Sequence record: NC_042307.1
Source: a phage
Direction: 5' to 3' (one strand)
DNA length: 64,000 nucleotides
Position numbers and translations under genes: made by a program. How positions within the stretch are numbered: the stretch's first letter is position 1; every line of letters starts with the position of its first letter. The notes below the pieces were generated by a model. The model was given only the letters and a program-made list of their open reading frames with translations. It was not told where the DNA came from and ran no database searches. Of this stretch, positions 1 through 23,325 are shown piece by piece.

Positions 1-466
1 GTCGCAAGGTATTTGCTTTTAATACGGCGTTCTCTAAATCTAGATATTCGAATATTCCACCATAAATATTCTTACCCTCACTATTTATTATCTGTACTTG
101 CCACTTTTGTAGCTGCTTATTCCAATGTACTCCTAAGTACCCTGATTTGCTAGAGGCAGTGCAGTTTCTATTATTAATTTGACTAGTAGATTCTCTTAAA
201 TTTTTCCATCTATTATCTGACCGTATACGATTTATATGATCTACTAAGTCAGGAATACTTCCTGTCATATACAGAAATGCCAGTCTATGGGCTAGATAAT
301 CTACCTTATCTATTTTTATAGTTATATAACCATCTTTTCTTAAATAGCCAGCAACTGCTCCGGCTTTACCTCCCCTACCTCTACTTATTTTATTAGTAAA
401 TATTCCAGTATCGGGATCATAATTTAGAAGTTCTTTTAATCTCTCTAGTGTCGGTTGTTTACTCAT
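1..466 (-). CDS. HNH homing endonuclease (MITQ/HNH_3-type), partial: C-terminus lies beyond window start
   Basis: ATG at 466..464; frame checked codon by codon and open to position 2; N-terminus MSKQPTLERLKELLNYDPDTGIF..GYIIIGID..AHRLAFLYM matches the other HNH copies in the window. Confidence 0.7.
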   Translation of the reverse strand, partial: MSKQPTLERLKELLNYDPDTGIFTNKISRGRGGKAGAVAGYLRKDGYITIKIDKVDYLAHRLAFLYMTGSIPDLVDHINRIRSDNRWKNLRESTSQINNRNCTASSKSGYLGVHWNKQLQKWQVQIINSEGKNIYGGIFEYLDLENAVLKANTLR

Positions 467-842
467 CCAACCACCCTAAATCCATACTAAGAAGCGCTTT
501 TAATCCAGTTATTCCACTTCCATAAGTATCATAACGAATAGCTGTTCTACTTTTCACTTCTAGAATATCTTCATGTTCTGTGTTTTCTAGGATTTCGGTA
601 GAAATCCCCAAGTACCCTACTTGGTCCTCCTCATCCCACCCCATATCCTCTAGAAGATTTAGAGATAGTTCTACTCTTTCATCTCCATTACCTACGGAGT
701 AGTATTCCTCTAGTTTTTTAAACTTTAAAACTAGAGAATCTAGAATTAGTAGGATTTGTTCCTTAGTAATAGTTTCTTTATCACCCTGCAAGTAATTGGA
801 GTAATTCAGAAGGGCTTGTTCTAATTCAATTTCTTTACTCAT
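459..842 (-). CDS. hypothetical acidic protein (127 aa)
   Basis: ORF track; ATG at 842 preceded by AAGGA; own promoter upstream. Confidence 0.5.
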   Translation of the reverse strand: MSKEIELEQALLNYSNYLQGDKETITKEQILLILDSLVLKFKKLEEYYSVGNGDERVELSLNLLEDMGWDEEDQVGYLGISTEILENTEHEDILEVKSRTAIRYDTYGSGITGLKALLSMDLGWLDE

Positions 843-871
843 TTTATTATCCTTTTGTACTTATTGAGTAT

Positions 872-901
872 ATTATATTTAAAATTATACCTAATAAGCA
901 A
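872..901 (-). promoter_or_regulatory. sigma70-like promoter on minus strand (TTGCTT -35 at 896-901, 18-nt spacer, TATAAT -10 at 872-877)
   Basis: read from reverse complement of 843-901. Confidence 0.4.
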
Positions 902-917
902 GTACAATTTCAAATAT

Positions 918-939
918 AATAGCCCCCGAAAGGGCTATT
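918..939 (-). terminator. hairpin (8-bp stem AATAGCCC/GGGCTATT) downstream of thyA, followed on minus strand by a modest U-rich run
   Basis: inverted repeat seen in sequence. Confidence 0.35.
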
Positions 940-943
940 TAAG

Positions 944-1783
944 TTAAGAGGACATTTTAGCTTTAAGAGCTGGATGAGGATCGTACCCCTCTAAATGGAA
1001 TGACCAAGCTGCTGTATTATTTTCTAATAAATCGTAAAGATCTATAAACTCTGGCATTACTAGAGTTGGCAGAGGGCGTGGCTTGCGTTTTACCTGTTCT
1101 TCTACCTGTTCCATGTGGTCATTATAGATATGAGTATCACCGCCACTAAAGATAAGGTAACGAGGTTTTAATCCTGTCAGTTTTGCTAATATATGCGTTA
1201 ATAAAGCATAACTAGCAATATTGAAAGGTAAACCGAGGAAACAATCCACAGAGCGTTGTGCCCATTTAAGATCTAGGTATCCATCGTTACTTACATAGCA
1301 CTGGAAGCCGTAGTGACAAGGTGGTAATGCCATTTTATCAAGTTCAGCTACGTTCCACGCAGAAACTAGATGTCTGCGGCCATGAGGATTATTCTTGAGT
1401 CCTTCAATAAGCTCTAGAATCTGATCTCGCCCACCAAAGTTACGCCACTGTTTACCATATACTGGTCCTAGATTACCCTTATCATACCCCATACTTATAG
1501 CTTGGTCTTCATAATTTGGAGTCCAGATGGTCCACTGTCCTTCGTCACGCCCAAATGTGAATACACGTAGATCATGAAGATTTGTGGAACCAGACAAGAA
1601 CCATAATAGTTCTCCTACTACGGATTTCCAAGCTAGACGTTTGGTAGTGACGGCAGGAAACCCATCACGTAGGTCGAACTTAGCATAGGAATCAAAAATT
1701 GAAACTGTGCCTGTTCCTGTACGGTCATTACGGGGTTCACCCAGTAAAATTACATCTGTCAAAATTTTTAAGTATTGTTGCAT
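944..1783 (-). CDS. thyA: thymidylate synthase
   Basis: 279 aa; ThyA motifs LPPCH, DCFLGLPFNIASYALL, GDTHIY. Confidence 0.9.
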   Translation of the reverse strand: MQQYLKILTDVILLGEPRNDRTGTGTVSIFDSYAKFDLRDGFPAVTTKRLAWKSVVGELLWFLSGSTNLHDLRVFTFGRDEGQWTIWTPNYEDQAISMGYDKGNLGPVYGKQWRNFGGRDQILELIEGLKNNPHGRRHLVSAWNVAELDKMALPPCHYGFQCYVSNDGYLDLKWAQRSVDCFLGLPFNIASYALLTHILAKLTGLKPRYLIFSGGDTHIYNDHMEQVEEQVKRKPRPLPTLVMPEFIDLYDLLENNTAAWSFHLEGYDPHPALKAKMSS

Positions 1784-2316
1784 TAATAAGTAACCAATTC
1801 CTGTACAAATCGCAGGCTGTTATCACTGTTTGCGCCAACTGCATAGACTAATCGAGTGGATTCATAGTTATAATCCAGTATCATACTATCTAGGTGTATA
1901 TCTGCCTCTAGCTTCTGTTCACTAAAGATTGTAGATACAAAAGCACTTTCAATATGCCCATGTTGATACATTTCTAGAAGAAGATTAGCTCCACCTAGAA
2001 CTACTGTTTGCTGATCTTTTAGAAAAGTAGGTAATGTATCACCTATCATTGATATGGGAGTGTAAATATCATGTGTAATATCGTCTGGCAGTGGACGATC
2101 AGCACGAATAAATAGGTCAGAAGCTCCAATCATACGTTCCCTAACGGCATATGGAAGAGCTAAATAAGTACCTGCCCCAATAATAATATTATCAGGATTT
2201 AGTACATCTAATTGTGAATAAAAAGCATCTAGTTCTTCTTTAAAAGAACCCCAGGGGAGCTTACCTCGGAGGCCGAACTCCCCATTCGGCCCAACTGCAT
2301 ACATTGCTGTAATCAT
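1783..2316 (-). CDS. dihydrofolate reductase
   Basis: 177 aa; position between thyA and nrdB; start/stop overlaps (ATGA) with both neighbours. Confidence 0.75.
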   Translation of the reverse strand: MITAMYAVGPNGEFGLRGKLPWGSFKEELDAFYSQLDVLNPDNIIIGAGTYLALPYAVRERMIGASDLFIRADRPLPDDITHDIYTPISMIGDTLPTFLKDQQTVVLGGANLLLEMYQHGHIESAFVSTIFSEQKLEADIHLDSMILDYNYESTRLVYAVGANSDNSLRFVQELVTY

Positions 2317-3459
2317 AGGAAGTCTCCAAATTCATTACCCAAATCTTTCAAGGTATCAGTAGAGGTCTCAGTTACCTGACCTACACGGTAGGCTGCACCA
2401 ATCTGGATTTCTTGTGGGGCAGGCTGTAGAGAAGTAGTATCCAACCAGTTCATGATCCACGGAATAGGGTTTTTAGTGATTACTGGTAAGTGACTAGGCC
2501 ATTCTACACCAATGTGCATAAATGCGTTACGCCCCACAAAGTACAAGTATTCTTCTAGAAGTTCTGCATTCAAACCAATCAGACTACGACCTTTGAAGAT
2601 GAAATGACCCCATTCAATTTCAGTTTTAAGAGTTTTCAGGAGTTGTGCTGGTGCTTTAGCCACTGCTTCATCTACCAGATCTTTGTCAAACTGCTGGAAC
2701 ATAATCTGGATGATTGTTTTAGACATCTGAGTATGTAGGGCTTCATCTTTAGCAATCAATTGCAGATTTTTAGCAATACCTTGCAGAATATCGTTCTCTG
2801 CTAACGCAAAGGTACATGCAAAGGATGCGTAGAACTGCATTGCTTCCAGACCGTAGATTGCAAAATAAGCATCTAACAGTTTAGCCTGAGTTTCACGCTT
2901 AACCTCAGGGAACTCAGTTTCTGGATATGTATTGTCACCACGATGATCACGTACTGCGATGAAATACTGACCTAACTGGTACAGTTCATCGAACAGCTCA
3001 ACAGAATCAGCGATACGTGCGAATGCTTCTTGGTTTTTGGTTACAGAATCAATAAATTCTGCCGGATCAGTCAGCACATTACGAATAATATTACTATAAG
3101 CACGACTATGCAGGTCTTCAAAGTAGCTCCACTGCTTGAGCATACCTTCTAGTTCTGGACGACTTACAAGCGGCATAATAGCTGCTTCAGGCGCTCGACT
3201 GATAAAGGAATCAGTTTGGGTCTGCCATGCTAAGTTCAGGAGTGTGATTTCCTGAATTTCACGTGGGAGATTGGGCCATTGTTTCTTATCTGCTTCCAGA
3301 CTGATTTCAGTTTCAGTCCAAAATTGAGAGCGTTGCAGAAGTGCCAGACGTTCTAGTTCTGGATGTGCTACACGTACATAATCTGCGATACCTAGAGAAT
3401 CGCCCCAGGAAAAGATCAGCGTTAGTATGATCCCAATTCAGGTTTAGTAAAGTAGTCAT
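2313..3459 (-). CDS. nrdB: ribonucleotide reductase small subunit NrdB; reading frame interrupted near the 5' end (see findings)
   Basis: frame 0 is open 3437..2313 and aligns with class Ia NrdB (FSWGDSLGIADY.., SQFW.., RAPEAAIMPLVSRPELE.., HSRAYSNIIRN); only plausible ATG (3459..3457) is in another frame. Confidence 0.85.
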
Positions 3460-3594
3460 TGATTTTCCTCTTTCTCACTATTTCAGGAATATTATAGCAA
3501 ATCAGGTAGCGATTAGCAGGTAAAATTATAAACTATCAAGCTCCAATAGTTTCATATCGCGCCACTCTATAGCATCCTCAAGTTCTTGGAATGT

Positions 3595-4017
3595 TTAAGT
3601 ATATTTTACACCTTTACGGGCTATCTGTACCTGGTAAGATCCGCTAGCTTTTGGATGAATATTTTTAATACCTAACTTATTATCTTTATGCGCCCCGACA
3701 TTCTTTCCGTTACTGAATCTATCAGAAGCTACTAGGTTAATAGCTCTATTATCATGTCGTATTCTATTGTCGTGGTCTACTTCAGGTGGCAGATACCCAT
3801 GAATTTTAGCAAAGATTACCCTATGTGCTAAGTAGGGGTATCCTTTAATATTTAATACTATATATCCTGTAGATTTATCTAAGGAGCCTGCTGGTTTTCC
3901 GGCATATTTGGTATTAAATGTTTTATTATCTCTAGGTCTATGAGTTAATATTCCAGTATATGGATCATAATCAAATAATTTAGCTACCTCTAGATGATCT
4001 TCTAATGTTTTTGACAT
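3595..4017 (-). CDS. HNH homing endonuclease inserted between nrdA and nrdB
   Basis: MSKTLEDHLEVAKLFDYDPYTGIL..GYPYLAHRVIFAKIHGYLPPEVDHDNRIRHDNR; start taken as internal ATG 4017. Confidence 0.7.
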   Translation of the reverse strand: MSKTLEDHLEVAKLFDYDPYTGILTHRPRDNKTFNTKYAGKPAGSLDKSTGYIVLNIKGYPYLAHRVIFAKIHGYLPPEVDHDNRIRHDNRAINLVASDRFSNGKNVGAHKDNKLGIKNIHPKASGSYQVQIARKGVKYT

Positions 4018-4082: not shown

Positions 4083-6410
4083 TTATAAGGTACAGCCACC
4101 TGAAGAACATCCTGTAGTTTCTCCAGCTCCTCCACCATTCGCAGTGTTAAAGTTAGCATAATACCAGGTTTTTATACCATACTTAACCGCAGTCATAAAG
4201 TCACGAACTACTACTGGGCCAGGGATGATTTCATTCTCGAATTTAGAGTAATCATAATACATCTGGAAACTTGATGACTGACTCAAGAATTTTTGGTAAA
4301 CGGCGTTCCATTTGATCCACTCAGTGCGATCAATATCATAAGCTAGTTTATAGCTCATTAACGTTTCCCAGTCGGTTGCACCTGGAGCAATTGCAATTAC
4401 TTTATTTACTGCACTACCTTTGATAGATACAATCTTACGAGGTGGTTCGATAGAGTTAGTAACACCTAACAGAACAGAAGAACTTTCTCCCGGCATCTGA
4501 GCAGTCAGAACAGAGTTACGCATACCATATTTCAGAATATCTGCACGCAGAGACTCCCAATCCATTTCTAGACCTACGGATACCAGTTCATCAACAGTTT
4601 TCTTGTACGTGTCGATTACCAGAGTTCCTTTAGATGGTTTAGTACGATCGAACCATTCACATGCACCTTGCTCTTTGGCTAGACGTACAGAGGCTTTATG
4701 CAGGAAGTAGGACAATTTTTCAGCTTCACGATGAATCCAGTTACGAGCCTCAATACCTTCATAAGCCAGACCTTCTGCTGCCATTGCACCTGCTGCGTTC
4801 ATCAGACCAATACCAACGTTACGACGTTTCTTAGCCGTATATTCCATAGTTGGGAACGGGTAATCCTGAATTTCAATGATGGTATCAACAAATTTCAGAA
4901 GAATATAGCAAGTCTTTTCCCACTCAGCCAGAGATTCCATGCGTCCTAATACAACACCACCTAAGTTACACAGAGATACTTCCCCAATATCCTCCGGCTT
5001 CATTTGATCGAGTTGTTCTTTTGTTTTATACAGTTCCGTGATATGATGGAACGGGCGTGTAGGCTGAGTAATTTCAACACAAAGGTTGGTCATACGAATC
5101 GGGTCAAGGAAGTTACCATGACGGTTAGATTCACCAATGTGATGAGCATACATACGCCCTGTTTCCATACGGATACGTAACCAAGTATCTAGGATTTCTT
5201 TTGCAGAGATTCTAGGAGCTGCTGGAATTGTTTTTCCTTCGTGGTCGGTCTTTGTAAGAGATGCCACACGTTTCTCCGCTGCCACGTAGATTTCTTCAAA
5301 CTTAGCCTCATCTTCACCATAAAACGCTTCATGAACTTCTGGTGCGTAGAAGTAGGACATTAGCGTAATATCTTCGTTTTTCAGGTAACGTTTTAACAGA
5401 AGGTTGTTAAAGCTCAGAGAATAATCCATCTTATCGATTTTATTCTCGTCTGTAGCACGTTGCTGCTTAACCTGCATCAACTGAATGATTTCAGGATCGA
5501 AGTATGGATAAGACACAGTAGCAGAACCGCCACGGGTTTGCTGAGTGTTAGCTTTTACTGAACGGTCAATGTGTCGATAATATGGCAGTTTTCCGGAATG
5601 CGGGAATGCCCCATTTCGCACCGGATCAGCAATTGATCGGCTTTCAAGATGATACCCGATTCCCGCTCTGGCTGCGACCATTTTGAAGACGATGTGCTCG
5701 GCTGTGTCGATTGAATCCAACGTGTCAGTGGAATCCACGAGGCAGCAACTAGCAAATCCACGGTCACTAGAACGCAAACCAACCAGTGGCGGCGTAGGAA
5801 CGTTGATTTTGTGGAGCGACATTGCATTGTAGAGATCGATTGCATCTAGAATTGTCCAGTTGGGTTGAGATAACATCGCCATTGCCATGCCCATATAGGC
5901 AAATTGCGGGGTTTCGTAAATTTCACCAGTGGCTATATTACGACGGGAATATTTATCAAAGAACTGTTTCAGTCCACCACTAGTAAAAAGACGGTCACGA
6001 TCGTGGTCTATAACCTGATTCAGAGCTTCAAATTGCTCATCGGTAATCCATGCACTCATGTCTTCCCATGCACCTACACTAACCATATGATCGTGGAAGA
6101 AGCGTAGAGAAGGTGGTTCGAAGGAATCATAAAGGCGTTTACGCATCTGCGCAAGACGTAATTCCTTTGCTGGCACGTCGTATGCTGGATTATCTTTAAT
6201 AAGACTTTCGGCAGCTTTAATTAACGCATCCATCAGAGTATCGGAATCTACAACCCCTTTAGGCAGAGTTTTTTGAGCAGCCATAGTAATGGCAGACCAA
6301 CTTACATCAACTGTTTTGCAACCATACTCTGCCCAACCATTGAGTTTTTCAGGAGCAAAGTCTTCTACAGTACCGTCACGTTTAATTACTTTTTCAATGC
6401 GATGGCTCAT
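4083..6410 (-). CDS. nrdA: ribonucleotide reductase large subunit NrdA
   Basis: ATP-cone start MSHRIEKVIKRDG aligns with E. coli NrdA; AAGGA upstream of ATG 6410; an in-frame upstream ATG at 6515 with AGGAGG is an alternative start. Confidence 0.9.
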   Translation of the reverse strand: MSHRIEKVIKRDGTVEDFAPEKLNGWAEYGCKTVDVSWSAITMAAQKTLPKGVVDSDTLMDALIKAAESLIKDNPAYDVPAKELRLAQMRKRLYDSFEPPSLRFFHDHMVSVGAWEDMSAWITDEQFEALNQVIDHDRDRLFTSGGLKQFFDKYSRRNIATGEIYETPQFAYMGMAMAMLSQPNWTILDAIDLYNAMSLHKINVPTPPLVGLRSSDRGFASCCLVDSTDTLDSIDTAEHIVFKMVAARAGIGYHLESRSIADPVRNGAFPHSGKLPYYRHIDRSVKANTQQTRGGSATVSYPYFDPEIIQLMQVKQQRATDENKIDKMDYSLSFNNLLLKRYLKNEDITLMSYFYAPEVHEAFYGEDEAKFEEIYVAAEKRVASLTKTDHEGKTIPAAPRISAKEILDTWLRIRMETGRMYAHHIGESNRHGNFLDPIRMTNLCVEITQPTRPFHHITELYKTKEQLDQMKPEDIGEVSLCNLGGVVLGRMESLAEWEKTCYILLKFVDTIIEIQDYPFPTMEYTAKKRRNVGIGLMNAAGAMAAEGLAYEGIEARNWIHREAEKLSYFLHKASVRLAKEQGACEWFDRTKPSKGTLVIDTYKKTVDELVSVGLEMDWESLRADILKYGMRNSVLTAQMPGESSSVLLGVTNSIEPPRKIVSIKGSAVNKVIAIAPGATDWETLMSYKLAYDIDRTEWIKWNAVYQKFLSQSSSFQMYYDYSKFENEIIPGPVVVRDFMTAVKYGIKTWYYANFNTANGGGAGETTGCSSGGCTL

Positions 6411-6554
6411 TTGGTTTTCCTTTTTATAGTTATCAGGATTTAGGAAATAGTTTACTTTATTCTCAGTCATTTGGCAAATAAAATTTTCTGATAGAAAAGG
6501 CCCGAGTATTTTCATACCCAGGCCTCCTGTGTTGTCAGTCTAGTTTTTGGCCAC

Positions 6555-6752
6555 TTAAGTTCTCAGCAGAATATCTATTGAGGTACTTAGTTCATTATAA
6601 TTGAAGGGCCGATTTGGATTTGAGGTTACAATTGTCCACGCTAGGGTAGTCTTAGGACTTTCTTCCCCTTCCTTACGTGTAATCATATTAGCAGCACTCA
6701 GTGAAGTACGATGTATTTTAGTTTGTCGGTGTAAATGTACAACGTCTCCCAT
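6555..6752 (-). CDS. hypothetical small protein (65 aa) immediately downstream of phoH
   Basis: ATG 6752 with GGAAGGTG 5 nt upstream; no recognisable motif. Confidence 0.35.
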   Translation of the reverse strand: MGDVVHLHRQTKIHRTSLSAANMITRKEGEESPKTTLAWTIVTSNPNRPFNYNELSTSIDILLRT

Positions 6753-7800: not shown

Positions 7801-8670
7801 GTGGAATGCCCGAAAAAATTAACTCAAGAAGAAGTAGATAAATGCCTAGCCGAGCGTGGTTTTACTATGGTGGATAAGCCATATCAAAATTCTAGGTATA
7901 GGCATACGTATCAGTGTGAATACGGTCACCAATGGACAGCTAAATTTGACGCTATTAGGAATGGAAAGACCAATTGTCCTACTTGCTCTATTAGTAGCCG
8001 TAAACTAGATATTGATAAAATTAATACTATATTACAGGACAGAGGTATTACATTGTTGAACGGCTATAAAAATAGTGCCGATATAAATACTAAATTTAGG
8101 TGTGTTTGTGGTCATGAGTGGGCTACTACACTTAATAGTATAATTAATAGAGGTAGTGGCTGCCCATCTTGTGCTGCTAATAAACAGAAACTTAGTGTTA
8201 ATACTATAAATGATCGTCTTGCTGCCAGAAATATCAGAATAGTGGGTGAGTATAGTAATGCGAATACTAAGACCGCCTTTCTTTGTGGTGCAGGGCATAG
8301 GTGGGAAGCTACTCCAGGGTCTGTATTAAGGGGGAACGGTTGTCCTTACTGTAGTTATAGAGATTTAGAAAGTACTAGGATATATGTTATGTATAGCCCC
8401 TCACATGGGGTTAAAATAGGTAGGTCTAACAATCCAGAGCGTAGACTTCTACATATTAGATCTAGTAGCCACCTTATTGATTTGGAAATAATTAAAGTAT
8501 TTGAAATTGGGGAATATAGTAGTGCAGTTCGAATAGAAAAATTAGCCCATAACTACTTTAAAGAGCAGAATTGCCAGTACAAAGATTTTGACGGCGCTAC
8601 GGAATTCTTCAATATTGAACCAAAAGTAGCTATAAAGTTTATCGAGGAAATAATCAATGACAGAGAATGA
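7801..8670 (+). CDS. putative homing endonuclease: three tandem zinc-ribbon repeats plus C-terminal GIY-YIG-like/T5orf172-like domain
   Basis: repeats ..GEYSNANTKTAFLCGAGHRWEATPGSVLRGNGCPYCS; C-terminal IYVMYSPSHGVKIGRSNNPERRL; GTG start; paralogous to 60056..60730. Confidence 0.5.
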   Translation: MECPKKLTQEEVDKCLAERGFTMVDKPYQNSRYRHTYQCEYGHQWTAKFDAIRNGKTNCPTCSISSRKLDIDKINTILQDRGITLLNGYKNSADINTKFRCVCGHEWATTLNSIINRGSGCPSCAANKQKLSVNTINDRLAARNIRIVGEYSNANTKTAFLCGAGHRWEATPGSVLRGNGCPYCSYRDLESTRIYVMYSPSHGVKIGRSNNPERRLLHIRSSSHLIDLEIIKVFEIGEYSSAVRIEKLAHNYFKEQNCQYKDFDGATEFFNIEPKVAIKFIEEIINDRE

Positions 8671-10483
8671 ATTAATTGAGAATTGCAAAGGTCTGCTCAC
8701 TCTAACTGCGGATAAGGACTTACAGCATAATAATGCTAATAAGCCTAGTGAGATGTTCCATACTCAAAGAGACTTATTGGCCGGAGAAATCAACAAATAT
8801 TTAGTATCGCAGGAATTACCCAAACATCTATTAGACGCCCATAATCTAGGTAAGATACACATTCATGATATGGATTACAGGGCGCAGGGGTACACTAACT
8901 GTTGCTTAGTAGACCTTGGTGGCATGCTGAAGAATGGTACTAAAATTGGTAATGCAAATATTGAAACTCCTAAATCCATAACTACTGCATGTGCAATCAC
9001 TGCTCAGATTATTGCCCAAGTATCTGGTGCTCAGTATGGTGGCACCTCTATTGATCGTATCGACGAGGTTCTAGCCCCGTATGTCAGAAAGTCTTACAAT
9101 AAACATCTGGGTCGTGGGCTACGTTGGCTCAAGGATGAAAGAAAAGCTGCTGTGTATGCTACTGAGCTTACTGAAAAAGAGTGTTATGATGCATTCCAAG
9201 CTCTAGAGTATGAAACTAATTCATTATTTAACTCTAATGGGCAGACCCCTTTTGTTACGCTTGGCTTTGGATTAGGTCAGGAGTGGGAGGAAAGGATGAT
9301 TCAGAAAGCCATCCTCCAAAATCGTATTAAAGGTTTAGGTGCTGCTGAGTCAACCCCTATCTTCCCTAAACTAGTATTCTCAGTTAAAGAAGGGTTAAAT
9401 AAAAATCCAGGCGATCCTAACTACGATATAAAACAGCTAGCACTTGAGTGTTCTGCTACCCGTATGTACCCAGACTATTTAAGCTATGAGAAAGTTGTAG
9501 CTGTTACTGGTGATTTTAAAGCCCCTATGGGTTGTCGTAGCTTTTTATCTGCTATCCCCTCCGGAGAAATTGCAGGGCGCAATAATTTAGGTGTAGTGTC
9601 TATTAATCTACCTATGGTTGCTGCTGAGGCAGATGGGGTTTTTGAAGATTTCTGGGATATTCTGGACAAATATGTGGATGAGGCTTTTGAAGCTCATGAT
9701 TTTTTCTTGGATAGACTTAAGAAAGTGAAGGCTAAACAAGCCCCTATTCTTTATATGCACGGTGGTTTTGGTGTGCGTTTAGATGGGGAAGAGTATGTAT
9801 GGCCTATTTTTGAGGGTAGATCTTCTGTATCTCTTGGATACATTGGGGTCTATGAGATGTGCCAAATAATGTTTAGTCTACCACAAACCCATAGGGATTG
9901 TATTGAATTTACAGAAGAAGTTCTTACTCACCTAAAAAATCGTTGCGAAGTTAAAGCTAATGAGACTAATCTTGGATTTAGCTTATACGCTACCCCTAGT
10001 GAGTCTCTATGTAATCGTTTTAATAAATTACTAGAACGTAGATTCCCAGAGTATTCTTGGTTAACAGACAAAGGCTATCTTACTAATAGTCACCATTTGG
10101 ACGTAAGAGAGAAGGTAGCCCCAGATACTAAATTTGAGTACGAAGCTCATTTTACCAAAATAGCTAATGGTGGTAATATATCGTTTGTGGAATTACCACA
10201 AATGAAAAAATTCCATAAAGCTCTTGAATACGTAGTAGATAAGGGACTAGAGTGTAGCCATTATATCGGTGTTAATATACCGATTGACGAGTGTTTCAAC
10301 TGTGGATATATGGGTGAATCTATTGCCTCTGAGCGTGGGTTTGTATGTCCAAGTTGTGGGTCTGAAGAAATAGAGGTTACACGTAGGGTTTGCGGGTACC
10401 TGGGATCCCCGGGCAGTAGGCCTTTCAATTCTGGGAAACAAAAAGAAGTGCTTGGTAGAGTAAAACACTTAAATCTTAAGTAA
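8657..10483 (+). CDS. nrdD: anaerobic ribonucleoside-triphosphate reductase
   Basis: 608 aa; C-terminal glycyl-radical motif RRVCGYLG and zinc site CPSCGS. Confidence 0.9.
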   Translation: MTENELIENCKGLLTLTADKDLQHNNANKPSEMFHTQRDLLAGEINKYLVSQELPKHLLDAHNLGKIHIHDMDYRAQGYTNCCLVDLGGMLKNGTKIGNANIETPKSITTACAITAQIIAQVSGAQYGGTSIDRIDEVLAPYVRKSYNKHLGRGLRWLKDERKAAVYATELTEKECYDAFQALEYETNSLFNSNGQTPFVTLGFGLGQEWEERMIQKAILQNRIKGLGAAESTPIFPKLVFSVKEGLNKNPGDPNYDIKQLALECSATRMYPDYLSYEKVVAVTGDFKAPMGCRSFLSAIPSGEIAGRNNLGVVSINLPMVAAEADGVFEDFWDILDKYVDEAFEAHDFFLDRLKKVKAKQAPILYMHGGFGVRLDGEEYVWPIFEGRSSVSLGYIGVYEMCQIMFSLPQTHRDCIEFTEEVLTHLKNRCEVKANETNLGFSLYATPSESLCNRFNKLLERRFPEYSWLTDKGYLTNSHHLDVREKVAPDTKFEYEAHFTKIANGGNISFVELPQMKKFHKALEYVVDKGLECSHYIGVNIPIDECFNCGYMGESIASERGFVCPSCGSEEIEVTRRVCGYLGSPGSRPFNSGKQKEVLGRVKHLNLK

Positions 10484-10529: not shown

Positions 10530-10554
10530 TTTCAGCTAAAAATTTATGTATAAT
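10526..10554 (+). promoter_or_regulatory. T5-type early promoter TTGCTT-17-TATAAT
   Basis: followed by conserved ATAAATTTGAGAGG leader and ATG at 10583. Confidence 0.65.
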
Positions 10555-20166: not shown

Positions 20167-20475
20167 ATGAGCGAACAGGTAAATCAAAACTATGAAGGAC
20201 ACGTTGATGACCAGTCCATCATACTTTGGGAGAAGGAGGGGGAACAAGTAAGATTAACAGTATCTGAATTTCGTGGGAATCTATACATGGGTATTCGTTA
20301 CTGGCTTCTTGATATTAATGATGAATGGTTTCCAACGAAATCTGGCTTCTCTTTTCCTTACACCCTAGAAACAACATCACAGCTTTTCTATGCGTTTACA
20401 CAGATTCTTAGCGAATCTGAGGTTTTACATGAAGTACAGAAACGAGCTGAAGAACTAAAAGCCAAGAATGCCTAG
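20167..20475 (+). CDS. hypothetical protein (102 aa)
   Basis: ORF track. Confidence 0.45.
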   Translation: MSEQVNQNYEGHVDDQSIILWEKEGEQVRLTVSEFRGNLYMGIRYWLLDINDEWFPTKSGFSFPYTLETTSQLFYAFTQILSESEVLHEVQKRAEELKAKNA

Positions 20476-20494
20476 TTCTTGGCTTTTTCTTTAT
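20461..20494 (+). terminator. rho-independent terminator overlapping the stop codon of the upstream gene
   Basis: GCCAAGAA-TGCCTAG-TTCTTGGC then TTTTTCTTTAT. Confidence 0.7.
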
Positions 20495-20502
20495 AAATGT
20501 AT

Positions 20503-20531
20503 TTGCTTTCAACTCAGTTTTGTTATATAAT
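20503..20531 (+). promoter_or_regulatory. T5-type early promoter TTGCTT-17-TATAAT
   Basis: exact hexamers; ATAAATTAATGAGAGA leader. Confidence 0.65.
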
Positions 20532-20562
20532 ATTTATATAAATTAATGAGAGATATAAATAA

Positions 20563-21534
20563 ATGACTAATGTAAAAGAATTTATTAAACGCTGTCAAGA
20601 AGCATATTATCAAGGCATGTCTTTAATCTCAGATGAAGAATATGATCGCCTGGTAAAACGCTTCCCGTTAGAGGAAGAGATCGGGCCTAAGGGTGATATT
20701 CCACATCTATATCGTATGTATTCTTTACAGAAAGTTTACTATAACCGCGGTGATAAACCACCATTCAATCCGTTAGGTCAAGTAGAAACTGATAAGTTAG
20801 ATGGTTGTGCAATTTCTCTGCTATATATTAATGGCGAATTTGTTCAAGCACTAACTCGTGGTAATGGTATTCTGGGGAATGATGTCACAAGCAACGTAAG
20901 ATTGCTGAACATTCCTAAAAAGATTTCCCAAAAAGTACCTACTCAAATCACTGGTGAAGTTCTAATTACAAAAGAAGTAGAAAATAAACGTAACTTTGCC
21001 TCTGGTGCTATTAACCTCAAAGATAGCGATGATTTCGTACAACGTATCGGGGAAGGTGGTTTAATCTTCGTTGCATATGGTATCCAGTGTTCTGCTGAAT
21101 CTGTAGGTATTACAGAAGCATATTTAAAAGATATGCTTTGGCTAGAGAATGAGAACTTCTTAACAGTTGTTAATGTGCGTTCCTTCTTTAAATGGATTCC
21201 GACGGACGGTAAAGTTGTTCGTATTAATGACAACAACAAATTCTTCCGCGAAGGCTGGACTAATAAATTTCCTCGTGGAGCATTCGCTGTTAAAGAGGAT
21301 GAAGAAGGCGAGATTACAACTCTTACTAAAGTTGAATGGCAGGTAGGGGCTTCTGGTAAAGTAACTCCAGTTGGTTATTTCGAACCGGTAATTATTGATG
21401 ATGCTACAATTGTTAAGGCGACTCTTAATAACGTTGATTATATTAACTCTCTCGATCTAGAGATCGGTTGCCAGATTCGAGTGATTCGTGCTGGTGGTGT
21501 AATCCCATGCATAGTAGAGCGAGTATACGATTAA
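20563..21534 (+). CDS. NAD-dependent DNA ligase, N-terminal polypeptide (adenylation and OB domains)
   Basis: catalytic lysine motif KLDGCAIS; ends ..GGVIPCIVERVYD where bacterial LigA continues into the zinc finger. Confidence 0.85.
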   Translation: MTNVKEFIKRCQEAYYQGMSLISDEEYDRLVKRFPLEEEIGPKGDIPHLYRMYSLQKVYYNRGDKPPFNPLGQVETDKLDGCAISLLYINGEFVQALTRGNGILGNDVTSNVRLLNIPKKISQKVPTQITGEVLITKEVENKRNFASGAINLKDSDDFVQRIGEGGLIFVAYGIQCSAESVGITEAYLKDMLWLENENFLTVVNVRSFFKWIPTDGKVVRINDNNKFFREGWTNKFPRGAFAVKEDEEGEITTLTKVEWQVGASGKVTPVGYFEPVIIDDATIVKATLNNVDYINSLDLEIGCQIRVIRAGGVIPCIVERVYD

Positions 21535-21584
21535 TACATAACCCTTTGCTACCCATCTACCATATCGGAATTATAAAGTGGTTA

Positions 21585-21613
21585 TTGACATTTTCGCCGC
21601 TTAGGTATATACT
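21585..21613 (+). promoter_or_regulatory. sigma70-like promoter TTGACA-17-TATACT inside the ligase gap
   Basis: hexamers at 21585-21590 and 21608-21613. Confidence 0.5.
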
Positions 21614-21677
21614 ATTATCATTCAGTTGAGGGATAGAAAGTTATGGCGAGGGTAAGCAAAGTTAGTTAAAATTGTAG

Positions 21678-21706
21678 TTGCTAAATGCTTAAATACTTGC
21701 TATAAT
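21678..21706 (+). promoter_or_regulatory. T5-type promoter TTGCTA-17-TATAAT inside the ligase gap
   Basis: hexamers at 21678-21683 and 21701-21706; ATAAATTGATAAGGAAG leader. Confidence 0.6.
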
Positions 21707-21736
21707 ATTTATATAAATTGATAAGGAAGAAATTTG

Positions 21737-22516
21737 ATGAAAATCGAAATTCCAACACAATGTCCCTCTTGTGGTTCTAAGCTAGATCTTGTCAACGGAC
21801 AATTATTCTGTCGTAATAAGTCCAACTGTCCAGCGCAATCAAGTAAGTTAATTGAGAACTTCTGTACAAAAATGAAGTTAAAGGGCTTTGGCCCAAAAAC
21901 TATTGAGAAGCTGGAGCTGACGAAGATTTCAGAACTATTTTACCTAACCGAAGAAGATTTGGTTAGAGCCGTGGGTAGCAAGGTTGCCGCTAAGTTAATT
22001 AGCGAATTAAATACTAAAGTTCGCGGAGACATTGACTTTGGTTCAGTTCTCGGTTCTTTAGGAATCACTCTAATTGGAGAGGTTGCAGCAAAGAAATTAT
22101 CCCAAAATTGCACTAGCTTCCATGATGTGAAGGCTGACGGCAAGGCTGGAGAAAATTACAAAGCCTGGCTAAATTCCCCACAAGGCAAGGATGTTATTGA
22201 ACTACCGTGGAAATTTTCAACTGGTATTAAGGGCACTAAAGCTGACGTCATCATTACAGATGAATTAGTTGCCCAGCCAAATGGAATCGCGGTATGTATT
22301 ACCGGATCTTTGCAAGATTTTGCAAATAGAACGGATGCAACAAACTATTTAGAAAGTCTAGGGTATACGGTTAAGAAATCCGTTACCAAAGACGTCAAAT
22401 ACCTAATCTGTGAGGATGAATCGAAGCGTTCCTCCTCATCTTATAAGAAAGCCGAAACGAATGGGATAGAAATCCTGTCGATTAAAGAACTATTGGAGAA
22501 AAATAATAATGTCTAA
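21737..22516 (+). CDS. NAD-dependent DNA ligase, C-terminal polypeptide (zinc finger, HhH, BRCT)
   Basis: CPSCGSKLDLVNGQLFCRNKSNCPAQ zinc finger; ATG 21737 (track start is TTG 21734). Confidence 0.85.
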   Translation: MKIEIPTQCPSCGSKLDLVNGQLFCRNKSNCPAQSSKLIENFCTKMKLKGFGPKTIEKLELTKISELFYLTEEDLVRAVGSKVAAKLISELNTKVRGDIDFGSVLGSLGITLIGEVAAKKLSQNCTSFHDVKADGKAGENYKAWLNSPQGKDVIELPWKFSTGIKGTKADVIITDELVAQPNGIAVCITGSLQDFANRTDATNYLESLGYTVKKSVTKDVKYLICEDESKRSSSSYKKAETNGIEILSIKELLEKNNNV

Positions 22517-23276
22517 ACTGAACTGGAACGTAGAAGGTGTAACCGAGTCTCTGAAAGCAAAAGCCACTGCTCTGGGTGTTGCTGTAATCTCTCAAGAACA
22601 AGTAGCTGCTATCGCTGCTGAACTGGCTGCTGAAACTGGCAAAGATGTTACTGCTCGCTCTGTTGGCTCTAAGCTGCGTAAAGAAGGTTTTGAAGTACAA
22701 AAAGCTAACGAAGTACAGAAATCCCCGTGGACTCCTGAGCAGGAAGCTGAACTGGTTGATTTCCTGAACGCTCATGCTGGTCAGTATACCTATGCTGAAA
22801 TCGCTGCTGCTGTAGCTGGTGGTCAGTTCGGTGCTAAACAGGTACAGGGTAAGATCCTGAGTCTGGAAATGACCGCTTCTGTTAAACCAACTGAAAAAGC
22901 TGCTGCTGTTCGTTCCTTCACTCCGGATGAAGAAACTGATTTTGTTAATCAGGTTGTTGCTGGAGCTACTATTGAAGCTATCGCTGCTCACTTCGGTCGC
23001 AATATTAAGCAGATCCGTGGTAAAGCTCTGAGCCTGCTTCGTGAAGGTCGTATCGCCGCTATGCCGGTACAGGAAACTTCAAGTGCTAAAACTCGTGAAG
23101 ATCTGTTAGAAGGTCTGGATCTGGCTAACATGACTGTTGCTGAGATCGCTGAGAAAACTGGTAAGTCTGAGCGCGGTGTTAAATCTATGCTGTCTCGTCG
23201 TGGTCTGGTTGCTAAGGACTATGATGGTGCCGCTAAGCGTGCTAAACTGGATGCAAAAGCTGCGGCTGCTGAATAA
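22509..23276 (+). CDS. hypothetical abundant protein with four internal HTH-like repeats, possibly a DNA-binding protein
   Basis: repeats EIAAAVAGGQFGAKQVQGKILSLE / AIAAHFGRNIKQIRGKALSLLREG / EIAEKTGKSERGVKSMLSRRGL; strongly host-optimal codons. Confidence 0.45.
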   Translation: MSKLNWNVEGVTESLKAKATALGVAVISQEQVAAIAAELAAETGKDVTARSVGSKLRKEGFEVQKANEVQKSPWTPEQEAELVDFLNAHAGQYTYAEIAAAVAGGQFGAKQVQGKILSLEMTASVKPTEKAAAVRSFTPDEETDFVNQVVAGATIEAIAAHFGRNIKQIRGKALSLLREGRIAAMPVQETSSAKTREDLLEGLDLANMTVAEIAEKTGKSERGVKSMLSRRGLVAKDYDGAAKRAKLDAKAAAAE

Positions 23277-23293: not shown

Positions 23294-23325
23294 AAGGGGA
23301 GGGGGCTATGCTCCTTCCCCTTTTT
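23294..23325 (+). terminator. rho-independent terminator
   Basis: AAGGGGA..TCCCCTT then TTTTG. Confidence 0.65.

Follow-up and report, generated by a model that had tools for sequence, protein, structure and literature searches.

Two adjoining genes very probably encode the NAD+-dependent DNA ligase of a T5-like phage, with a conserved promoter block at the break

In the usual LigA family of NAD+-dependent DNA ligases all domains lie on one polypeptide, and a locus at which such a ligase stops (ligA stop at 21532-21534) and restarts beyond a stretch of intervening DNA raises the question of whether the enzyme is still whole, and why it should be kept in two parts. The locus lies at positions 20563-22516 of a 64,000-nucleotide stretch of phage DNA (sequence record NC_042307.1, hereafter the window), and we are highly confident that a T5-like phage (Tequintavirus) here encodes its NAD+-dependent DNA ligase as two subunits. 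T5 is 97.8% identical to the window at the nucleotide level over 20400-22700, with strain-level substitutions only, and the window has the T5 gene order PC4/p15 - ligA - ligB - D5 - dnaB both upstream (PC4/p15) and downstream (D5 and dnaB) of the ligase; among proteins, the top match, at 99.3%, is to Escherichia phage vB_EcoS_MM-1. At essentially the same locus, T5 LigA and LigB (T5p114/T5p115; dnlj1/dnlj2) are annotated as 'NAD-dependent DNA ligase subunits A and B' and are separated, as here, by a 202-nt gap with the promoters P-K 28b/28a (T5P36/T5P37); GenBank records of T5 already carry ligA (20563-21534), ligB (21737-22516) and both gap promoters. Split ligase annotations are present in hundreds of T5-like genomes, and a 2006 paper credits the discovery of the split ligase to Wang et al. 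2005 (T5 genome). The sequence-only reading of this DNA had guessed at a lineage trait rather than a novelty, and rightly so: the split ligase of T5-like phages is real, functional and already known, and in itself adds nothing new.

Table 1 Features of the ligase locus and its flanks in the window
Feature	Position	Strand	Description
Intrinsic terminator	20457..20487	+	13-bp stem then T-run (scan); closes upstream unit
ligA promoter	20503..20531	+	TTGCTT-17-TATAAT; equivalent to T5P35 / 'putative promoter' in T5 annotations
ligA	20563..21534	+	Putative domain Ia remnant, NTase/adenylation domain with KLDG (K78), OB fold; 323 aa
Non-coding gap	21535..21736	+	202 nt; stops in all three forward frames
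Promoter P-K 28b	21585..21613	+	TTGACA-17-TATACT, 11/12; expected transcription start near 21620
Promoter P-K 28a	21678..21706	+	TTGCTA-17-TATAAT, 10/12, extended -10 TG; expected start near 21713
ligB Shine-Dalgarno	21723..21729	+	AAGGAAG, 7 nt before ATG; read from sequence
ligB	21737..22516	+	Cys4 zinc finger (C9, C12, C25, C31), HhH, flexible linker, BRCT; 259 aa
D5-like transcriptional regulator / DNA-binding protein	22509..23276	+	phrog_323 'transcriptional regulator, D5-like', E 2e-71
Strong intrinsic terminator	23294..23322	+	13-bp stem, 8 G-C pairs, T-run; closes ligB-D5 unit

Both halves are recognizable by their domains (Table 1). LigA contains the stretch ETDKLDGCAIS and matches the Pfam NAD-ligase adenylation domain (PF01653, E 2e-23) and OB domain (PF03120, E 4e-22, residues 252-321), and its K78 aligns with K115, the adenylation lysine of E. 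coli LigA (2owo). Residues 1-46 (the region of the putative domain Ia, whose NMN-binding motif confers NAD+ specificity) fall outside the Pfam match and their resemblance to 1v9p ('ISDEEYDRL' vs 'ISDAEYDRL') is aligned within a sub-threshold stretch only; the phrog_3869 match spans LigA residues 1-321, and the LigA homologue of Providencia phage PR1 is deposited as 'DNA ligase (NAD(+))'. The second ORF (21734/21737-22516, + strand, 260 or 259 aa depending on the start) carries a BRCT domain (Pfam E 6e-8), an HhH region with a weak Pfam match, and four zinc-finger cysteines that are aligned with those of E. coli and invariant in 68 homologues; its AlphaFold model reaches a mean pLDDT of 91.4 and superposes on the C-terminal half of 2owo, with PDB chain 9hu3_B as the best structural match. 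Judging from homologues, the conserved start of ligB is ATG 21737 and not TTG 21734, because the TTG is absent there in other genera and chain 9hu3_B begins MKIQ; a GGA/GAGG motif is likewise kept at the Shine-Dalgarno position in other genera. The description from which we started, of an adenylation/OB part with KLDGCAIS ending at 21534 and a zinc finger/HhH/BRCT part restarting at 21737, thus holds on both sides of the gap.

The interruption falls within the OB-zinc finger linker and costs the enzyme no domain. When concatenated, A and B stay collinear with E. coli LigA (2owo) as the alignment passes through the junction, where LigA ends in '...IPCIV-ERVYD' and LigB begins with 'M-KIEIPTQCPSCGS' vs '...IPQVVnvvlsERPEDTrEVVFPTHCPVCGS' in E. 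coli, and the two halves tile the full-length profiles TIGR00575 (A reaches position 378, B starts at 388) and phrog_3869 (A 9-381, B 388-654), leaving only about 6-9 linker positions of E. coli LigA or these profiles uncovered. This bears out the earlier statement that the adenylation/OB part stops just at the point at which bacterial LigA runs on into its zinc finger. The phage ligase shares with E. coli LigA the order NTase, OB, zinc finger, HhH, BRCT (preceded in the phage by a putative Ia), the KxDG catalytic lysine and the Cys4 zinc finger, but the bacterial enzyme is a single chain of 671 aa whereas the phage version is compact (323 + 259 = 582 aa), and the identity between A+B and bacterial LigA is only about 25-30%. 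We consider that an ancestral compact LigA-type gene was probably divided in this short linker: LigA (putative domain Ia, adenylation domain, OB fold) holds the catalytic lysine and would perform the NAD+-dependent chemistry, the zinc finger, HhH and BRCT of LigB would form the DNA-clamping half, and the separately translated halves would assemble non-covalently around a nick to do the job of a single-chain LigA.

An interrupted canonical architecture could also be the mark of a decayed, non-functional ligase, i.e., a pseudogene pair in a phage that relies on host LigA, and an arginine at the position matching E. coli K290 of motif IV would fit such a decay. We regard this as highly improbable, as dN/dS values of about 0.1 in both halves (0.09-0.11 for ligA vs Epseptimavirus homologues; 0.08-0.10 for ligB) indicate that purifying selection is acting on each of them, the catalytic lysine, the OB fold and all four zinc-finger cysteines are conserved, the split is retained throughout the genera sampled and in metagenomes (see below), and the PR1 homologue was crystallized on nicked DNA under the name 'DNA ligase'.

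This homologue also speaks to the preferred reading of two cooperating chains. PDB entry 9hu3 (released 2026) is entitled 'PR1 phage heterodimeric DNA ligase in complex with 21-mer nicked DNA', both 9hu3 and 9i5i contain chains A and B, and chain B is 100% identical to the LigB of Providencia phage PR1. The PR1 enzyme is a two-chain, T5-like phage ligase broken at the same linker position as that of the window, and each of its chains matches the corresponding window protein over the whole length (E 1e-103 and 8.5e-80; 56% amino-acid identity). How the halves act together, which had puzzled the sequence-only reading, has thus been addressed structurally for the PR1 homologue; a heterodimer on nicked DNA is known for PR1 only, from the title of 9hu3, and would apply to the window enzyme by likeness. 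A literature search found no publication for the 9hu3 structure or for the P-K 28 promoters.

All Demerecviridae genera sampled have the split in the same place, and an alignment of the junction in six split and ten fused forms places the break between same-strand cistrons at the homologous linker position of the family. The gaps between ligA and ligB range from 192 to 1374 nt, those of Proteus and Vibrio phages including one to three unrelated genes (a NADAR-domain protein, a DprA-like protein and small unknowns). As whole genes stand between the halves in these T5-like phages, a contiguous or spliced product is therefore ruled out and, together with the two-chain PR1 homologue, this upholds the claim that the two polypeptides are made separately. 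Metagenomes add about 100 further free-standing LigB clusters, a number that is an upper estimate because one of the three divergent LigB matches examined (P0129) is a contig-edge fragment. The Serratia phage 2050HW, which has several 'ligase' features, was set aside, as its N-terminus is fragmented and the break is not the OB/zinc-finger split.

The gap itself holds stop codons in all forward frames, as had been noted, and a promoter scan of it returns exactly two sites (21585-21613 and 21678-21706), the same that had been proposed from the letters alone. Such a scan is not evidence in this AT-rich DNA, where promoter-like sites are not above chance (5 found vs 7.0 +/- 2.7 expected), and we take the two promoters as real because they are conserved across genera and labelled in AY692264, whose 'promoter P-K 28b' and 'promoter P-K 28a' map to window positions 21565-21639 and 21658-21732. 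In seven phages of different genera, aligned at a distance at which synonymous sites are saturated, P-K 28b keeps the first five positions of its -35 (TTGAC) and five of the six of its -10 without any change, as P-K 28a keeps its TTGnTATAAT, and the tandem block stands directly upstream of ligB in all seven. The suggestion that the second half may also be transcribed on its own gains from these named and conserved promoters, on grounds of sequence and conservation. The P-K 28 promoters are reportedly ones that Gentz and Bujard selected by function in 1985. A mini-ORF between the promoters (21643-21669, MARVSKVS*) is confined to close relatives, being absent from Klebsiella, Proteus and Vibrio phages, and is probably not a gene.

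Phage 'genes in pieces' made by homing endonucleases are an established phenomenon, and several phage enzyme splits have been attributed to homing-endonuclease or other mobile insertions. A mobile element (a homing-endonuclease gene, group I intron or intein) might accordingly have split the ligase gene and left the gap as its remnant, with RNA or protein splicing possibly restoring a contiguous product; besides this background, an HNH-motif gene of T5 about 3 kb downstream of the ligase and the use of the gap as a variable insertion slot in other genera would agree with such an origin. Against an intron stand an Rfam search of the gap (E<=1), which gave no hits, and an RNA fold no better than that of shuffled sequences (z-score -0.21), so that an intron or ribozyme was rejected; an intein is excluded by the stops in all frames. 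No homing-endonuclease domain was found in any ORF in the gaps of the window or the relatives, the genes occupying the gaps of other genera being those listed above; the promoter hexamers are the most conserved gap positions, and the PR1 enzyme was solved as two chains. A mobile-element origin is already largely refuted, and we give it next to no probability. The T5-type ligase resembles the T4 topoisomerase gp39/gp60 and the split nrdA and split DNA polymerase of Aeromonas phage Aeh1, which likewise come in pieces, in that a multidomain enzyme comes from adjacent cistrons and is reassembled non-covalently, but it differs from the several splits of this kind put down to mobile insertions: what is conserved in the DNA inserted here is a promoter block, and the search for an endonuclease gave none.

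We consider instead that the gap is probably regulatory DNA and not debris, carrying two strong sigma-70 early promoters and a ribosome-binding site. Upstream, the PC4/p15-like gene (20167-20475) precedes a terminator, and AY587007 has a 'putative rho-independent terminator' at the same place; the ligA and ligB promoters have one -10 and downstream block in common, TATAATATTTATATAAATT (repeat D1), and the 19-mer occurs in 6 copies in the window (<=3 mismatches) vs 0.15 expected. Downstream, the first 8 nt of D5 lie within the end of ligB, an overlap that suggests that the two genes may be translationally coupled. Of the seven relatives checked, six have D5 beside the ligase gene (0-6 nt; 32 nt in Vibrio 70E35.2), and in PR1 a terminator is annotated where the one following D5 stands here. 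By their arrangement, ligB and D5 seem to form a pair of genes with promoters of its own and an end at the strong terminator. Given the gap promoters and this terminator, ligB-D5 would be transcribed separately and probably more strongly, while ligA would be driven by its own single promoter, and, as the scan detects no terminator in the gap, ligA transcripts probably continue into ligB. Such read-through would apply to the window and not family-wide, as PR1 has, within a gap of 192 nt, an annotated terminator right after ligA. Promoter use, the relative amounts of LigA and LigB and their stoichiometry are what we infer from these signals, and we likewise infer that the split may be kept because it uncouples the expression of ligB-D5 from that of ligA.

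The uninterrupted ligases with which a comparison had been proposed do exist. Metagenomes yielded about 10 compact fused ligases (555-578 aa; P0032, P0106, P0053 and others), and no fused form was found among cultured phages. These ligases of uncultured T5-like phages have the same clade-specific motifs in both halves as the window, but each is encoded by one uninterrupted ORF, in which a linker of variable length (~8-22 residues) takes the place of the stop codon, the 202 nt and the start codon of T5, and they are without the intergenic promoter block. T5-like neighbouring genes occur in two of the three fused-ligase contigs examined, and the downstream gene follows the ligase within 14 nt: in L013 its homology to D5 was confirmed (41% identity, E 4e-17), and in L014 (PC4 - ligase - 237-aa protein - DnaB - primase) it encodes a 237-aa protein with no Pfam hit. 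An internal promoter at the linker of the fused genes was considered, but the matches vary in position and allow no interpretation: one of 11/12 lies among the zinc-finger codons in L014, the other in the HhH region in L013. In a crude neighbour-joining tree of the LigB region (low resolution, without bootstrap), fused ligases are interspersed with split ones, and owing to this topology fission and fusion may have occurred more than once. T5-like contigs in which the ligase is fused do without an internal intergenic promoter, which counts against uncoupled expression as the rationale for the split.

A further explanation is that the split persists mainly through a second job of LigB, performed without LigA, the protein being produced in surplus from the strong tandem promoters before its gene, e.g., to bind or mark the site-specific nicks of T5-type genomes or to act with the co-transcribed D5 protein. 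In favour of it are the tandem promoters kept before ligB in the seven phages aligned, the promoter that precedes ligB in every split form examined (near-consensus and immediately before the gene even in two very divergent metagenomic ones), the adjacency of ligB and D5 in nearly all relatives checked, with their overlap in the window and the terminator closing the pair, and the DNA of 9hu3, described as 'containing phage nick sequence', which hints at a link with genome nicks. Excess LigB and LigA-independent activity are, however, conjectural, the gap promoters may exist simply for strong D5 expression, and the fused relatives keep the ligase-D5 adjacency without a separate LigB; we therefore hold a second job to be rather unlikely. 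The related proposal that fission was adaptive rather than a neutral accident, a strong tandem promoter block having been placed in the only permissive linker and creating a highly expressed LigB-D5 module, uncoupled from LigA, in which LigB may have an extra role independent of LigA (e.g., nick recognition or protection), we likewise put forward as a speculative and not very likely one.

The value left in this locus is that of a clean natural case of a multidomain DNA enzyme acting as two chains. It also poses the question of why the promoter block is conserved at the break family-wide when the gene is undivided in uncultured relatives whose gene order is T5-like, and the natural fused and split forms could tell control of LigB-D5 expression from a separate role of LigB.

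The ligase of this phage, a Tequintavirus, is encoded on the plus strand by two separate ORFs, as the sequence-only reading had proposed (see table), the first (ligA) carrying the NAD-ligase adenylation and OB domains and the second (ligB) a BRCT domain and a weak HhH match (Pfam). The 202 nt between them hold stops in all three forward frames, again as read, and have a G+C content of 31% vs 38-39% in the flanking genes. When concatenated, the two products are collinear with E. coli LigA (2owo) across the junction, i.e., the C-terminal ERVYD of the phage LigA lies opposite ERPED, and LigB M-KIEIPTQCPSCGS opposite T-rEVVFPTHCPVCGS. Both full-length profiles are tiled by the halves, TIGR00575 (652 positions) by LigA to 378 and LigB from 388, and phrog_3869 (656 positions) by LigA at 9-381 and LigB at 388-654. 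Based on this alignment and tiling, which agree with the earlier claim that the first half stops where LigA enters its zinc finger, the cut is placed within the short linker between OB domain and zinc finger, with every domain predicted to be retained. K78 of the KLDG motif matches the E. coli adenylation lysine. The zinc finger has all four cysteines at the E. coli positions, and these are invariant across 68 homologues. AlphaFold predicts LigB with high confidence (mean pLDDT 91.4) except for linker residues 167-178 preceding the BRCT domain. In the motif IV region, LigA has an arginine (R220, about 21220-21222; DGKVVRIN opposite E. coli DGVVIKVN) in place of the functionally important lysine K290 of E. 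coli; the LigA of the T5-like Providencia phage PR1 likewise has Arg here.

Features of the split ligase locus and of related loci
Feature	Sequence	Coordinates	Strand	Basis or context
ligA, 323 aa	window	20563-21534	+	ORF call
promoter P-K 28b, TTGACA-17-TATACT	window	21585-21613		promoter scan
promoter P-K 28a, TTGCTA-17-TATAAT, extended TG	window	21678-21706		promoter scan
ligB, 259 aa	window	21737-22516	+	ORF call; mechanical ORF start is TTG at 21734
strong intrinsic terminator, 13-bp stem, 8 G-C pairs	window	23294-23322		directly 3' of D5-like gene
NADAR-domain protein in gap	L011 (Proteus phage Stubb)	1192-1809		Pfam, E 1.6e-31
DprA-like protein (phrog_768) in gap	L004 (Vibrio phage Rocket24)	2427-2987		profile match
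fused ligase	L013 (metagenomic contig)	2151-3857		after Phage_T5_A2-family gene; followed by D5 homologue (41% identity, E 4e-17)
fused ligase	L014 (metagenomic contig)	8001-9674		T5-like order PC4 - ligase - 237-aa protein - DnaB - primase
fused ligase	L015 (metagenomic contig)	4875-6563		no diagnostic Pfam matches in contig

A tblastn search with both halves as query returned a ligase in two pieces in every Demerecviridae match listed (Tequintavirus, Epseptimavirus, Sugarlandvirus, and Vibrio T5-like phages), and the separately fetched Priunavirus and Novosibvirus loci are split as well; the remaining phage ligases among the matches listed, all below 30% identity and most of them jumbo-phage enzymes, are in one piece. 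The linker is broken at an identical position in all split forms (junction alignment). The gap measures 192-202 nt in the enterobacterial genera; in Proteus and Vibrio phages it widens to 443-1374 nt and houses one to three accessory genes, e.g., a NADAR-domain protein or, in Vibrio phages, a DprA-like protein and small unknown ORFs, behaving as a cargo slot. That a mobile element split the gene is essentially excluded, as no homing endonuclease is found among these Proteus and Vibrio gap genes and the 202-nt gap has neither an Rfam match nor a significant RNA fold. The NAD+ ligase annotation of the jumbo Serratia phage 2050HW comprises three successive ORFs of 65, 59, and 535 aa (L012, 1106-3090); unlike the OB/zinc-finger split, this looks like a fragmented N-terminus, perhaps due to a sequencing error or to an interruption of another kind.

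Both halves are under strong purifying selection: in comparison with Epseptimavirus homologues, for which dS is unsaturated, dN/dS is 0.09-0.11. Two PDB entries (9hu3 and 9i5i) contain a 339-aa chain A, 'DNA ligase (NAD(+))', matching LigA (E 1e-103), and a 248-aa chain B, 'DNA ligase subunit B', matching LigB (E 8.5e-80) and 100% identical to LigB of phage PR1. The title of 9hu3 (release date 2026-01-14) is 'PR1 phage heterodimeric DNA ligase in complex with 21-mer nicked DNA containing phage nick sequence'. A two-chain homologue sharing 56% identity with the window proteins has therefore been solved on its nicked substrate, which bears out the view that the halves are separate polypeptides. 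Such a structure, coupled with the low dN/dS in both halves, essentially excludes a pair of pseudogenes.

The promoter scan recovered the two gap elements of the sequence-only reading at the same coordinates. Given that promoter-like matches in this AT-rich region are not above chance (5 found vs 7.0 expected), the scan by itself is no proof of promoters. P-K 28a and P-K 28b reportedly belong to a set of T5 early promoters that the Bujard laboratory obtained by selecting for function (Gentz and Bujard 1985). We aligned ca. 200 nt 5' of ligB from seven phages, one per host group or genus (the window and loci L004, L006, L007, L008, L010, and L011). TTGAC of the -35 and T-ATA-T of the -10 of P-K 28b, and TTGnTATAAT of P-K 28a, are invariant in 7/7 phages, while mean column identity is only 65% and synonymous sites are saturated between these genera (pS 0.72-0.82). 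The tandem promoters, ca. 93 nt apart and directly 5' of ligB, keep their hexamers even in Vibrio phages (ca. 50% protein identity), and the block stays adjoining ligB whatever separates it from ligA, the extra genes of other genera sitting between the ligA stop and the promoters. A near-consensus promoter is also present in two very divergent metagenomic split forms (LigB 31-35% identical), with 7-9 nt between the end of its -10 and the ligB ATG (L016, 35-90; L018, 100-139). With so short a spacing and no Shine-Dalgarno sequence, both appear to have a ligB mRNA that is leaderless or nearly so; the ligA stop of L016 lies only ca. 50 nt upstream. An eight-codon mini-ORF, MARVSKVS* (21643-21669; SD-like GAGGGA at 21628-21633), lies between the promoters of the window, is retained with two synonymous changes in Yersinia phage phiR2-01, and is replaced by a different 9-codon ORF in PR1; it is unconserved in Klebsiella, Proteus, and Vibrio phages and probably not a gene.

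A separate promoter precedes ligA, and its 19-nt block of -10 and initial transcribed region (TATAATATTTATATAAATT, 20526-20544) is identical to that of P-K 28a (21701-21719). Further copies lie at 10549, 31278, 31379, and 51863(-), i.e., six in the window (≤3 mismatches) vs 0.15 expected; the block is a dispersed early-promoter cassette, labelled 'repeat b' in the T5 record AY587007. Downstream, ligB overlaps at its stop with the beginning of the gene for the D5-like regulator (phrog_323), and the terminator following the latter overlaps the mechanical ORF start of a DnaB-like helicase gene at 23308. The conserved promoter block suggests that the gap is regulatory, and, with the gene overlap and the terminator after D5, the promoters appear to define a two-gene ligB-D5 unit. 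No intrinsic terminator was found by the scan in the 202-nt gap, and transcripts from the ligA promoter probably contribute to ligB-D5 expression.

LigB served as query in an exhaustive HMMER search of 1.84 billion cluster representatives. Among the best 150 matches, about 100 clusters (roughly 235-267 aa) are free-standing and LigB-like, an upper estimate since one of three divergent ones inspected (P0129) is a contig-edge fragment, and ten are ligases in a compact, fused form (555-578 aa) with T5-clade motifs in both halves; classical LigA (610-720 aa) scores below these. The fused form is metagenomic only, none being found in cultured phages. The best phage-database matches of the fused ligase P0032 are split Demerecviridae ligases (38-39% identity). 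Three fused-ligase contigs were inspected (see table); the 237-aa protein of L014 has no Pfam match. This contig also encodes NAMPT/NAPRTase-like and PRPP-synthetase-like proteins (59-2429, minus strand), which would put a phage NAD+ salvage pair close to a ligase that consumes NAD+. A crude NJ tree of the LigB region places the fused forms in scattered positions between split ones, some fused forms being basal; its resolution is too low to decide between one fission and several.

The ligase region of the window matches 516 phage records and is 97.8% identical in T5. The T5 record AY692264 annotates both ligase genes and places 'promoter P-K 28b' at window 21565-21639 and 'promoter P-K 28a' at 21658-21732, each containing the corresponding scanned site; in AY587007 the genes are named dnlj1 and dnlj2 and the gap promoters T5P36 and T5P37. 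The split is credited by a 2006 paper (PMC1684257) to the T5 genome paper (Wang et al. 2005, Virology 332:45), and two ligase subunits are also listed in a 2013 T5 paper (PMC3632103). Thus, the split ligase is real and already known, and the sequence-only reading was correct, also in citing T5 ligase as annotated in two subunits and the split as probably a lineage trait. It is rather unlikely that the split is kept because LigB or LigB-D5 needs independent or higher expression, or because either has a role without LigA, perhaps tied to the site-specific nicks in genomes of the T5 type. The locus is very probably best explained as the known two-subunit NAD+ ligase, in which LigA would perform the adenylation chemistry and LigB supply the DNA-encircling half, the two associating non-covalently on the nick, with ligB-D5 promoted separately.
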